A program made the position numbers. Below are positions 24,001 to 27,000 of a stretch of 64,000 nucleotides of DNA, one piece after another. Every line of letters starts with the position of its first letter. The first letter of the stretch is position 1. Location: assembly GCF_056746865.1 (NCBI RefSeq), contig NZ_CM163382.1; one strand, written 5' to 3'.

Positions 24001-27000
24001 AAGAGAATATCCGACGGGAAGCTGCTGAACAGGCCAGGCTCGAAGCTGAACAAAAAGCGAAAGCTGAAATTGAGGCTGCGGCACGCCTGGCGGCGGAAGA
24101 AAAAGCACGTGCTGAAGTAGCAGAACGTCAGCGAATTGAAGCAGAGCAGCGTGCACGACGCGAAAAAGAAGAAGCCGTTGCCGAGGAACGCCGACGCCAA
24201 GAGGCGGCAGAAAAAGCCCGCCTTGACGAACAGAAGCGTATCGCCGACGAAGAAGCGCGCCGAGCTGCAGATAAAGAGCATCGCCGTACCGTTAACCGCA
24301 GAGTAATCGCAGATCTGATAGCCCAAGGCATTCACGAAGAATTCGCGCAGAAAGCAATGTTGGCTATCGCTGGCGGCAAAGTGCAGGACGCGTATATCAA
24401 ATATTGAGGTGGGTATGAACGTTAATCAGCAGAAAAATCTTCAAAAAATCATGCTGGCATTCGACAAGGACTACCGCCTGTCAGAACAGCTATATGACCG
24501 ACAAGTTGAACTGATCGATAGCATCCGGCTTCATCAACTGGCCTCAACTTTTGACGCTGTAACAGGCAAAGGAGTTCGCCAGGAAGTACTGGAGGCTGCT
24601 AAAGACAGCCCTGAGTTCGAAGAACTGATGGATGCCTACCGGCGAGAGGCAATGGCAATTATCGCCCGCTGGGATCTGGCGGATCGGATTGATGGGCAGA
24701 GGGAAGCGGCATGAAACCGGGAATTTATTTCGACATCAGCAATGAGGACTACCACGCCGGTGACGGCGTGAGTAAGTCGCAACTGGACATGGTTGCCAAG
24801 AATCCGGCGCTTCTTAAATGGGTTCAGGCAGCACCAGAAGACGAAGAGAAAAAGTCTGCACTGGATATGGGAACCGCATTGCACTGCCTGCTTCTGGAGC
24901 CTGGAGAGTTCGACAAACGCTTCATTGTTTCACCGAAATTCGATCGTCGGACGAAACAAGGTAAAGCTGACGAAGAAGCATTTCTTCGTGATGTAGCGGA
25001 TATGGGGATTACGGTACTTGATGCCGAGCAGTGGCGGAAACTGGAGCTGATGCGTGATAGCGCAATGGCTCACCCGGCGGCACGCTGGATGCTGGAAGCA
25101 CCTGGTTACTGCGAAGCATCAATGTACTGGAATGATGAAGAGACTGGTGAGTTGTGCCGCATTCGTCCAGACAAATGGCTGAACGAGCACAACGTGATCG
25201 TCGACGTGAAAAAGGTTGCAGATATGGACCGTTTTGCACGCCACATCGAGGAATTCCGCTACCACGTGCAGGACGCAATGTACCGCGAAGGCGCAATGAG
25301 GGTTACTGGTCAGCCGCATGGTTTTTTCTTTCTTGCCGTGAGCGAAAGCATTGATTGTGGTCGGTATCCGGTACGCGTGTTCGAGCTGGATGCGCCGGAT
25401 GTCGATGCCGGGCACGCTCTGTTCCGCCGGGATCTGAATACCTATCACGAATGCCGCATCAACGATGAGTGGGGCGGAGTGGAAATTATTAAACGCCCTG
25501 ACTGGGCACGTAAACAGGATATGTACGTATGAGCAATGATATCGCAATCACATCACAACCAGGCGCAACTGTAGGTACTGCTGCGGCAATCTTCAGCCCG
25601 GAGGGCATGAATCAACTGGTGCGTTTCGCGGAGTTGATGTCACAAAGCAAAGCGACTGTACCGAAACATCTTGAAGGCAAACCTGCCGATTGTCTGGCGG
25701 TGACCATGCAGGCGGCACAGTGGGGAATGAACCCTTTCGCCGTGGCGCAGAAAACGCATGTGGTAAACGGAACGTTAGGCTACGAAGCACAGTTGGTAAA
25801 CGCGGTCGTATCCTCTTCCAGCCTGCTAGCGACACGCCTGAATTATCGCTGGAGCGGTGACTGGTCGAATGTTAACGGCAAAACAGATAAATCACCGAAT
25901 CTGACGGTAACTGTGTCAGCAGTTCTTAAAGGAGAAGCAGAACCCCGTGAGCTTACCATCAGTATGGCGCAAGCCGGAGTGCGTAACTCTCCATTGTGGG
26001 AACAGGATCCGCGCCAGCAGCTTGCCTATCTTTGCACGAAACGATGGGCTCGCCTGCACGCTCCTGATGTGCTTCTCGGTGTTTACACCCCTGACGAATT
26101 ACAGGAAACGGCACCGCGCGTTGAGCGAGACATTACTCCGCAAACGACTACTGCTGCGGGAATGAACAGTCTGATCAACGCTAAACCAGTGAAAAAGCAT
26201 GATGAGCAAACGCGTAAAGCGGATAGCCGTGATCCAGAAGAAATGCTGATGGCCTTTACCAGCGCAGCGATGAATTACAGCACTGTCTCCGAACTGGATA
26301 AGGCTTACAAATACATTGCACAAAAACTTTCAGATGATGACGAACTGCTGGCAAAAGCCACCGACGTTTACAGCGTTCGTCGGGAAGAATTAAACGAAAC
26401 ATCTATGTAACCACCACCGCGGCGCCACACGCGCCGCACTGCAACCAAGAGAGGTATTTATGAAAGGTGCATTAGGTAAGAAGGAACTCCTGGCGGTGGT
26501 GCCACTGTCATGGAGCACTATCGACCGTATGGAGCGCGCAGGGGAATTTCCTAAACGCTGGTATATCACTGACAAACGCTGCGCATGGAACCGTGACGAA
26601 GTTGAGCGTTGGCTTGATGAACGTCAGGCAGCAAGCCCGGCAGAGTTCCAGGGTAAAAAACCTCCTGTTCAGCAACGTGTATATCGTCCCGTGAGCAACG
26701 CTGCATGAGTGCGCTGCTAAGGCACTGGATCAAATGGTCAGGATGGTACTTATTCCTGGCCTCTGTTTCAGCATGGCTTTATCTGCTGGCATTAATTTTC
26801 AGAGAGGGTTGGATTAAGTGAGAAAGTTAAGCCGACTTGAAAAATATCACATGAATAAGGTTTCAATGCGCAGTCCGTCAAAGATTGTCGCCGTTACTCC
26901 TGCGGCGATAGAGATCGAAAAACGCGCGATTGAAAGAGAGAAAAAAGGGCAGTTCCGCATTGCCGCTCACCTTTGGCTTCAGTGTATGGATGTTGCTTCT

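Follow-up and report, generated by a model that had tools for sequence, protein, structure and literature searches.

A 38-codon gene coupled to AlpA- and PerC-family genes in phiV10/epsilon15-type prophages encodes a predicted single-pass membrane peptide and contains a conserved mRNA hairpin

Introduction

MgtR, AcrZ, MgrB, KdpF and CydX are enterobacterial single-pass proteins of 30-50 aa, each expected to work through contacts between its helix and those of a larger membrane protein. SidA of Caulobacter and gp56 of phage SPO1 are single-transmembrane (TM) peptides that bind membrane proteins of the divisome. Lambda Kil, KilR and DicB are soluble, and lambda kil sits in the pL operon. HK97 gp15 and T4 Imm are examples of small inner-membrane proteins that exclude phages, and Iap of Pseudomonas phage D3 is a hydrophobic peptide of ~31 aa.

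Here, we analyzed a 38-codon ORF lying between an AlpA-like and a PerC-like gene in a 64,000-nt stretch of contig NZ_CM163382.1 (RefSeq assembly GCF_056746865.1), referred to below as the window. Sequence comparison identifies this ORF as the ortholog of phiV10 gp35 and epsilon15 gp32, carried by phiV10/epsilon15-type (Uetakevirus-like) prophages.

Results

The ATG of the ORF shares an ATGA with the TGA stop of the AlpA-like gene, and its own TGA stop (26819-26821) overlaps the GTG (26818-26820) that opens the PerC-like gene. The bounds of the ORF and both overlaps are exactly those of the original prediction. The three genes are as follows.

26460..26708, + strand: AlpA-family excisionase/regulator gene, 82 aa (Pfam Phage_AlpA; phrog_66 'excisionase and transcriptional regulator')
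26705..26821, + strand: 38-codon ORF, small single-pass membrane peptide gene (called on its sequence, a PHROG 17484 match, coding constraint and a predicted TM segment)
26818..27117, + strand: PerC-family gene, 99 aa (Pfam PerC; phrog_868 over 1-99/99)

Translation of the ORF gives MSALLRHWIKWSGWYLFLASVSAWLYLLALIFREGWIK, in which Trp accounts for 5 of the 38 residues. Its length is by itself unremarkable, since an ORF scan counted 83 ORFs of at least 25 aa in the surrounding 5 kb. The ORF is more than a chance occurrence because it is conserved intact, at the same position, in 36/36 related phage records. These records were found through their flanking DNA and thus provide the sample for intactness; the best 80 IMG/VR loci were chosen on peptide identity, which biases them for intactness, and were left out of that count. 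Overall, an ORF of 32, 38 or 39 codons was present in 240 of the 241 loci examined.

Residues 1-38 of the peptide match PHROG 17484 ('membrane protein') over profile positions 1-38/38 (E=2.5e-26, 92 bits). The gene is annotated in phage records as PhiV10p35 of phiV10 (gp35, YP_512290.1, UniProt Q286Y2), gp32 of epsilon15 (NP_848240.1, Q858E3), SPN1S_0036 and Tyrion gp33. Across phages of Escherichia, Salmonella, Enterobacter and Klebsiella, tblastn identities ranged from 66 to 100%: over residues 1-38 the peptide is 97.4% identical to phiV10, from which the window allele differs by I9 instead of S9, 81.6% identical to epsilon15, SPN1S and Tyrion, and 65.8% identical to Klebsiella phages, and it is 100% identical to a vB_EcoP_PAS61 protein. 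It is also kept in phages of Cronobacter and Citrobacter. An exhaustive profile search of 1.84 billion proteins returned only 8 matching clusters at 50% identity. The longer cluster members (77-119 aa) proved to be sporadic frameshift or deletion fusions, namely AlpA-peptide fusions and one peptide-PerC fusion on a single contig, and not a recurrent architecture. Pfam held no match to the peptide, and NCBIfam no significant one (the top hit, at E=0.49, was a sigma factor model with no relation to the peptide).

The ORF had been described as unannotated, which is true of E. coli genomes annotated by RefSeq/PGAP, where it is left out, but not of the phage records and PHROG 17484. The prophage module occurs in 557 of 5426 complete E. 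coli genomes (~1 in 10) and in many genomes of Salmonella, Klebsiella, Enterobacter and Cronobacter; despite this abundance, RefSeq drops the peptide gene and shortens its PerC neighbour. No paper of the library searched contained the peptide sequence, and those on phiV10, epsilon15, ZX5 and Uetakevirus do not discuss the peptide. The prediction correctly rediscovers a gene of an already known family, whose names in the reference records rest on TM prediction only.

In agreement with the predicted coupling on both sides, the arrangement is kept across genera: the peptide gene always lies between an 82-aa AlpA/excisionase gene and a PerC gene of ~100 aa, in rigid order and with 4-nt stop/start overlaps. 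The AlpA/peptide overlap is conserved across lineages as ATGA or GTGA. AlpA is preceded by a good Shine-Dalgarno (SD) sequence (GAGGT). In none of 8 lineages was the peptide start preceded by an SD-like match; lacking its own SD, the peptide is probably translated by coupling to AlpA. In all lineages, GAGG, GAAGG or AGGA stands 9-12 nt before the PerC start. In the window, this element lies within the peptide ORF.

26802..26808, + strand: purine-rich SD-like element GAGAGGG for PerC, in peptide codons R33-E34-G35, ~10 nt before the GTG

BUCT554 keeps this element (TGAGAGGAT) although its peptide ORF stops just before it. Furthermore, the PerC subfamily is present in exactly the same 36 phage records as the peptide, and its N-terminal residues (R/S)KL(S/T)RLEKYH are conserved across lineages. 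Judged from this conservation, the true PerC start is the GTG at 26818. The start called by PGAP (26866) and that of the phiV10 record (equivalent to 26851) were rejected, as neither is a conserved start codon.

Some annotators extend PerC in the opposite direction. In PAT1, BUCT711, ST512-KPC3phi13.3 and VB_ST_E15, PerC ORFs of 122-127 aa are called from ~30 nt into the region, which would turn the peptide region into the N-terminal part of an extended PerC protein encoded in the +2 frame. This frame is open in epsilon15, Tyrion and the Klebsiella lineages. However, a stop closes it in the window, phiV10, TL-2011b and BUCT554, its dN/dS is 0.9-3.4, and the PerC family profile begins at the short form (1-99/99), which leaves the extension barely credible.

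The operon that contains the peptide gene starts shortly after two repressor operators.

22477..23061, + strand: prophage repressor gene (HTH_3, 194 aa), upstream of the early operon and on the same strand
23119-23133 and 23181-23195, no strand assigned: two perfect repressor operator palindromes of the epsilon15 type (TTACC-N5-GGTAA), located after the repressor gene and before the first gene of the peptide operon

The operator-type motif has 14 matches in the window against 1.1 expected. In the curated epsilon15 record, three 'repressor' binding sites of the same sequence precede gp37, which opens the equivalent operon; for the epsilon15 counterpart of the repressor gene, the annotation cites a structural match to SPC32H repressor. 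AlpA is immediately preceded by exonuclease and RecT genes, and neither strand carries promoter-like sites between 25514 and 27944.

This organization bears on the idea that the peptide is a superinfection-exclusion or defence factor that guards the lysogen by countering incoming phage DNA at the inner membrane. Prophages can encode small inner-membrane proteins that exclude phages, and the PHROGs category of the family is 'moron, auxiliary metabolic gene and host takeover', which simply follows from the 'membrane protein' label. However, the gene lacks its own promoter and is coupled within an operon whose start lies shortly after repressor operators and which is expected to stay silent in the lysogen, making exclusion at that stage less likely. 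Moreover, neither the peptide nor AlpA nor PerC matched a PADLOC family, and the gene is always inherited along with the core genes AlpA and PerC, unlike a mobile moron. We therefore regard a role in exclusion as quite improbable.

Synonymous-site patterns, which the original prediction had named as a check for coding constraint, were analyzed and favor coding. Pairwise dN/dS was 0.11-0.31 in the peptide frame vs 0.7-3.4 in the other two frames, a constraint similar to that of PerC (0.09-0.34). Fitch steps over 81 alleles of the peptide ORF were distributed 75/59/138 by codon position, and the excess at third positions persisted when the hairpin codons (see below) were removed (66/48/106). The 39-aa forms differ from the 38-aa form by a one-codon in-frame indel. 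On the Enterobacter branch omega was ~0.7-1.0; even for this fast-evolving form, only 0.1-1.4% of simulations yielded an open ORF as hydrophobic as the real one or more so. The dS of the peptide ORF is lower than in the flanking genes. On these substitution patterns, the peptide gene is a genuine coding gene under purifying selection at the amino-acid level.

Part of the sequence conservation sits at the RNA level, in the PerC SD and in a hairpin embedded in the peptide ORF.

26736..26761, + strand: conserved 8-bp mRNA hairpin in the peptide ORF (GGUCAGGA, 10-nt loop, UCCUGGCC; codons 11-13 pair with 17-19)

The hairpin cells were 95% paired over 55 distinct sequences, compared with 26-46% in slid controls, and none of 500 shuffles matched the observed pairing or covariation score. 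Two pairs changed on both sides. Within the Enterobacter group the path runs from U-A through U-G to C-G, and a U.G pair ties the structure to the sense strand. The hairpin is the minimum free energy fold in 6 lineages (-13 to -18.6 kcal/mol, z -3.0 to -4.9), and the S12 codon is TCA in 81/81 alleles. Only this local hairpin survived scrutiny: a structured RNA spanning the whole region was ruled out by the absence of an Rfam match, a fold z-score of 0.10 and an unfavourable covariation term. Rfam, which includes the known type I antitoxin RNAs, gave no family at E<=1 in 26300-27300. The hairpin was also rejected as a repeated site because its motif is unique in the window; the 12-mer TGGTCAGGATGG occurs 5 times, and its other copies share neither frame nor structure. 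The hairpin illustrates on a small scale how constraints on protein and RNA overlap and inflate the apparent conservation of amino acids, and the WSG motif of the peptide is in part an RNA signal.

These RNA features are what would be expected if the ORF served as a translated relay from AlpA to PerC that houses the hairpin and the PerC SD, with selection acting on translation and RNA and the product itself being irrelevant. The missing upstream SD, the 4-nt overlaps on both sides, the covarying hairpin, the PerC SD kept in BUCT554 despite the earlier ORF stop, the dS below that of the neighbouring genes and an omega of ~0.9 on the Enterobacter branch all fit such a relay. However, omega in the other lineages is as low as that of PerC, the third-position excess extends outside the hairpin, the length variation is in frame, and the hydrophobic TM character exceeds chance even in the fast lineage. 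A relay ORF would have no need to keep either this hydrophobicity or the RHWxKWSG motif, and we judge the product to be irrelevant only with low probability.

A regulatory leader or arrest peptide, either Trp-rich like trpL or tnaC or a monitor of the MifM/SecM type, would act on the downstream genes through the same hairpin. The five Trp codons, with W8, W11 and W14 around the hairpin 5' arm, and the UCUGUUUC that follows the hairpin in the E. coli lineage speak for it. However, this U-tract is not conserved in the other lineages, no alternative antiterminator pairing is predicted, the region-wide covariation term is unfavourable and no Rfam leader family was found. Only 2 Trp are kept in the 32-aa form, and selection acts on the whole peptide, as seen from its omega of 0.11-0.31 and its hydrophobicity beyond chance, not just on regulatory codons. 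Finally, a 38-aa product is still in the ribosome tunnel at termination and is therefore unable to sense insertion force. Altogether, a leader function is very improbable.

The Trp-rich, single transmembrane-type character attributed to the product was borne out by both a TM scan and an AF2 helix prediction. The predicted TM segment covers residues 14-32 (19 residues; Wimley-White octanol dG -15.7 kcal/mol; Kyte-Doolittle 19-residue mean 1.92), contains no charged residue and is bordered by predicted Trp/Tyr belts. AF2 gave a single helix over residues 3-35 (pLDDT 78.9). A/T19-x3-A23 is retained in the 38/39-aa forms; when the TM helix was tested for a conserved face, no significant signal emerged (p=0.2-0.8). 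The 38-aa forms have 2 K/R on each side of the helix, leaving their topology ambiguous. The 32-aa Enterobacter form has 3 basic residues before the helix and 0 after. According to the positive-inside rule applied to this one lineage, the N-terminus is probably inside, with the RHWxKWSG motif at the cytoplasmic face.

Such a product could be a membrane-damaging or growth-arresting toxin with a Kil-like role, which would depolarise the membrane or block division early after induction. The peptide is small, very hydrophobic and rich in Trp, its operon lies just downstream of the repressor operators, where a lysogen tolerates a toxic gene, as with lambda kil in the pL operon, and the missing SD could hold its level low. 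However, the TM segment offers no polar or charged residues to line a pore, and searches of Pfam and NCBIfam did not relate the peptide to Kil, KilR, DicB or any Hok-type family. The hallmarks of type I systems are also missing, as there is neither an antisense promoter nor an Rfam RNA nor a stand-alone unit, and fixed coupling to two regulators is atypical of toxins. We consider a toxin unlikely.

Another conceivable activity is that of an Iap-like inhibitor of the host O-antigen polymerase in serotype conversion, as epsilon15 and phiV10 are O-antigen-specific converting phages and one epsilon15 conversion gene belongs to the same operon. However, in the curated epsilon15 record the alpha-polymerase inhibitor is a different gene (24462-24662, two TM domains), and the peptide is kept in phages that infect hosts whose O antigens and capsules are unrelated; this activity is hardly tenable. 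A holin or antiholin is also disfavoured, since the epsilon15 holin, endolysin and spanin genes (25215-26621) form a different transcription unit from the peptide gene.

Discussion

We favor, at somewhat better than even chances, the explanation that the 38-codon ORF is a genuine phiV10/epsilon15-type gene whose product works as a small membrane protein, made early in the lytic program and coupled to AlpA and PerC. The readings as a type I toxin, an O-antigen polymerase inhibitor, a holin, a leader peptide or an extension of PerC are disfavoured.

In the mechanism that we propose, ribosomes finishing AlpA would reinitiate at the peptide ATG by termination-reinitiation, and ribosomes finishing the peptide would start PerC, aided by the SD-like element in the last codons of the peptide. 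Because this coupled translation would take place in an operator-controlled operon, the peptide would be made only after induction or infection and at a fixed ratio to the two regulators AlpA and PerC. Its entry into the inner membrane would be post-translational, in the style of a tail anchor, since a 38-aa peptide is released before it is able to insert. There, by analogy with other small membrane proteins, it may bind and modulate a larger inner-membrane protein common to Enterobacteriaceae, belonging to the division, proteolysis or transport machinery. In our analysis, action through such a binding partner is the most likely mode, and a free pore-forming poison is less likely. The hairpin possibly tunes transcript stability or the coupled translation of PerC.

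A rather unlikely elaboration is that the ORF forms a dual-coding control point of induction, where the peptide would inhibit or modulate an inner-membrane machine, e.g. the divisome or FtsH, and the hairpin and SD would set the output of PerC and downstream genes per AlpA/excisionase. If so, 117 nt would hold three selected layers: a peptide, an RNA structure and a ribosome relay. If the target of the peptide is a conserved inner-membrane protein, a small and easily synthesised phage-derived modulator would join a short list of such peptides, and a gene that the reference records of phiV10 and epsilon15 label just 'membrane protein' would gain a function.

Compared with known systems, the window gene shows no substantive difference from phiV10 gp35, epsilon15 gp32, SPN1S_0036 and Tyrion gp33, with which it shares length, neighbours and 4-nt overlaps. 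With MgtR, AcrZ, MgrB, KdpF and CydX, the peptide has in common a single TM helix, the lack of an enzymatic domain and aromatic or basic juxtamembrane residues; searches of Pfam and NCBIfam revealed no sequence similarity to them, and unlike this group the peptide is phage-encoded, from a gene of an early lytic operon whose translation is coupled to that of two DNA-binding regulators.

Like the peptide, lambda Kil, KilR of Rac and DicB of Qin are small and encoded in a repressor-controlled early operon beside recombination genes, but neither they nor SidA and SPO1 gp56 are homologous to it. The type I toxins Hok, Ldr, TisB, Ibs and ShoB resemble the peptide in size and hydrophobicity. However, each of them forms a stand-alone gene that is tightly repressed at translation and has an antisense or overlapping sRNA, whereas the peptide gene is a coupled cistron in the interior of a long operon. 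Finally, D3 Iap and the epsilon15 'alpha polymerase inhibitor' are, like the peptide, small hydrophobic proteins of O-antigen-converting phages; the epsilon15 inhibitor gene adjoins the phage polymerase (an O-antigen ligase-family gene), ~5 kb from gp32, whereas the peptide gene does not.

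The ORF is a real gene already catalogued in phages

As originally described, the 38-codon ORF opens with an ATG at 26705 that forms an ATGA overlap with the TGA of the AlpA-like gene (26460-26708), and it ends with a TGA (26819-26821) that overlaps the GTG of the PerC-like gene (26818). Its product is MSALLRHWIKWSGWYLFLASVSAWLYLLALIFREGWIK. Because 5 kb of sequence yields 83 ORFs of 25 aa or longer, an ORF of 38 codons is weak evidence by itself, and the case therefore depends on comparison with relatives. The region is part of a phiV10/epsilon15-type (Uetakevirus-like) prophage and is itself present in 557 of the 5426 complete E. 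coli genomes; over the 801 bases around the ORF, it shows 100% identity to E. coli BEN5202.

The ORF had been described as unannotated, which holds for the bacterial-genome pipeline only: RefSeq annotation of E. coli genomes carrying the region calls no gene between HTH/AlpA and PerC. In contrast, the phiV10 record lists it as PhiV10p35, a "membrane protein" noted to be "similar to epsilon15p32", and other phage records as epsilon15 gp32, Tyrion gp33 and SPN1S_0036; its match to PHROG 17484 ("membrane protein") covers the full length (E=2.5e-26). Hence, the gene was already known, under the public names "integral membrane protein", "membrane protein" or "hypothetical protein". The peptide had no match in Pfam and no significant match in NCBIfam. 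When 1.84 billion representative proteins were searched exhaustively with a profile, only 8 clusters were returned, with hosts in Escherichia, Salmonella, Klebsiella, Enterobacter, Cronobacter and Citrobacter. The original observation is thus correct for a real, catalogued and functionally uncharacterised gene, to which our analysis makes modest additions: quantitative coding proof, coupling logic, a probable topology, an embedded hairpin and Shine-Dalgarno (SD) element, and a likely mis-set PerC start in RefSeq.

Coding constraint and the PerC start

Conservation in related phages, one of the checks originally proposed, was assessed in 36 phage records with the AlpA-PerC region, collected via flanking DNA. 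The ORF is intact in all 36; 35 gave a full-length tblastn match (66-100% identity), and the remaining one, BUCT554, carries 32 codons. Coding constraint is present, as dN/dS between lineages (Nei-Gojobori) is 0.11-0.21 in the peptide frame versus 0.7-3.4 in the other two frames. Compared with its flanking genes, the peptide has an omega of 0.11-0.31, similar to PerC (0.09-0.34) and a little higher than AlpA (0.03-0.25). The 241 loci compared comprise 82 DNA alleles and 40 peptide variants; ORF length is 32, 38 or 39 codons in 240 of them, the 39-aa forms differing through one in-frame codon, and the stop is lost in one. Parsimony steps by codon position were 75/59/138, or 66/48/106 with the hairpin codons excluded. 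Judged by these comparisons, the ORF is truly coding.

Some annotators begin a long PerC inside the peptide region in another frame. We rejected this form because stop codons interrupt that frame in four lineages and it shows no constraint, and because the PerC family profile begins at the short form. PerC is annotated from 26866 by RefSeq/PGAP and from the equivalent of 26851 in the phiV10 record. These starts are probably 16 and 11 codons short, since the lineages share the residues encoded from GTG 26818 and the phrog_868 match begins at residue 1. The RefSeq start is therefore likely mis-set too late, leaving a false 157-nt "intergenic" gap that conceals the peptide gene.

Rare natural variants (P0034, P0020 and P0021) carry a peptide-PerC in-frame fusion (one contig, deletion from F32) or a frameshifted AlpA-peptide fusion (119 aa), and are probably decay products. 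The peptide-PerC fusion would amount to a membrane-tethered PerC.

A co-inherited module under probable repressor control

In every context examined, the peptide gene is flanked with 4-nt overlaps by an 82-aa AlpA-type and a ~100-aa PerC-type gene, in agreement with the predicted coupling, while genes further downstream of PerC vary. This PerC subfamily is found in exactly the same 36 phage records as the peptide. Given this constant arrangement and shared distribution, AlpA, peptide and PerC form one co-inherited module. The surrounding features are as follows.

Features of the prophage around the module
22477-23061, plus strand: repressor gene, upstream and on the same strand as the ORF
23119 and 23181: two perfect operator palindromes TTACC-N5-GGTAA, between the repressor and the operon genes
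After the operators, upstream of the ORF, same strand: three genes of unknown function, then exonuclease and RecT
23373-24407, plus strand: 344-aa protein (phrog_1376, function unknown), second gene of the early operon
Downstream of PerC, in order: MT-A70 methylase, 82-aa gene, AntA antirepressor, integrase (opposite strand)
28078-28107: promoter-like site of the AntA gene, TTGACA-18-CATACT
28330-28980, plus strand: AntA/Ant antirepressor (216 aa), between the early operon and the integrase
29012-30262, minus strand: integrase
12823, 15967/15985, 20058/20120, 22022, 22359/22407, 23119/23181 and 30305: operator-like palindromes, at most one mismatch

The C-terminal half of the 344-aa protein is highly charged (Glu/Arg/Ala/Lys-rich), and in BEN5202 this position is occupied by a different set of genes. 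BEN5202 also lacks the AntA/Ant gene despite 100% identity around the peptide gene, indicating that the prophage is mosaic.

In the curated epsilon15 record, the equivalent operon is headed by three repressor sites that share the sequence of these palindromes. The palindrome occurs 14 times in the window with at most one mismatch, versus 1.1 expected, and most copies are paired ~50-60 nt apart at prophage module boundaries, suggesting several repressor-controlled promoters as in that record. No promoter-like site was found near the ORF on either strand. Together with the operators heading the operon, this leads us to infer that synthesis of the peptide is limited to the period after induction or infection. 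The position of the operators and the lack of a PADLOC match make exclusion by the peptide in the lysogen, an originally suggested role, less likely.

Translation signals and a conserved mRNA hairpin

AlpA is preceded by the SD GAGGT. No SD-like match lies within 21 nt upstream of the peptide start in any lineage, and the ATGA overlap is invariant (GTGA in Klebsiella). These features make it likely that the peptide is translated through termination-reinitiation by ribosomes ending AlpA. A purine-rich GAGAGG/GAAGG element lies 9-12 nt before the PerC start, within peptide codons R33-E34-G35, and BUCT554 keeps it although its ORF stops just before it. The C-terminal "REGW" conservation is thus probably in part an RNA signal for PerC.

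The ORF also contains an mRNA structure.

26736-26761, plus strand: 8-bp hairpin GGUCAGGA-N10-UCCUGGCC, peptide codons 11-13 pairing with 17-19

The hairpin is unique within the window and kept in every lineage, with pairing in 95% of cells (55 distinct sequences) versus 26-46% when the 3' arm was slid; none of 500 shuffles reached its pairing or covariation score. Two pairs change on both sides, one following a U-A to U-G to C-G path within the Enterobacter group, and the Ser12 codon is TCA in 81 of 81 alleles. In six lineages, the predicted fold of lowest energy is this hairpin (-13 to -18.6 kcal/mol, z -3.0 to -4.9). Its U.G pair makes it specific to the mRNA strand, and it is not a general terminator since no conserved U-tract follows it. 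It has no Rfam match and no annotation in the heavily annotated epsilon15 record. Possible roles are transcript stability or processing, or pacing of coupled ribosomes.

The 12-mer TGGTCAGGATGG recurs in the window, with five copies at no more than one mismatch versus 0.19 expected from shuffles.

1166, 10845 and 11511 (minus strand), 26735 and 43381 (plus strand): copies of TGGTCAGGATGG, the second exact copy being 11511-11522, minus strand

The other copies have no reading frame or hairpin in common with the ORF copy, and the recurrence may come from higher-order composition.

Membrane character and proposed function

Structure prediction favors the single-transmembrane, Trp-rich reading. 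Residues 14-32 are strongly hydrophobic (Wimley-White octanol dG -15.7 kcal/mol) and free of charged residues, with Trp/Tyr belts at the borders; AlphaFold2 gives one helix at residues 3-35 (mean pLDDT 78.9). The peptide contains no Cys or lipobox, and conservation is highest in the N-terminal juxtamembrane motif RHWxKWSG. For the 38-aa forms, the positive-inside rule gives an ambiguous orientation. In the 32-aa Enterobacter form, three basic residues precede the helix and none follow it, favoring a probable N-in, C-out topology.

BUCT554 1746-1844 and Enterobacter loci L132-L163: 32-aa peptide MTALKKHIGRWSDVY(L/M)YLAVVAYLMWLAAVIS

In this form, the C-terminal tail is missing and 13 nt separate the ORF from PerC. 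On its branch, dN/dS reaches ~0.7-1.0 for the peptide only, AlpA and PerC remaining constrained; this fast divergence could be relaxed or adaptive. When the same number of substitutions was placed randomly, an open ORF of at least the observed hydrophobicity resulted in only 0.1-1.4% of trials, indicating that membrane character is selected and arguing that the product matters, not translation alone.

Our literature search found no experimental work on the peptide. In the best-supported reading, it would be a small tail-anchored-type inner-membrane protein, produced in early lytic development in fixed proportion to the excisionase-like and PerC-like regulators. By analogy, it might act by contacting a larger membrane protein shared among Enterobacteriaceae; the test for a conserved helical face gave no significant result. 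The toxin or Kil-like role originally suggested for such a membrane peptide is possible. The organisation of type I toxins is absent, as the ORF has neither a nearby promoter-like site nor an Rfam match. Holin, leader-peptide and PerC-extension readings are disfavored because defining features are missing. Also disfavored is an O-antigen polymerase inhibitor, a role that in epsilon15 belongs to a gene distinct from gp32, the ortholog of the peptide.
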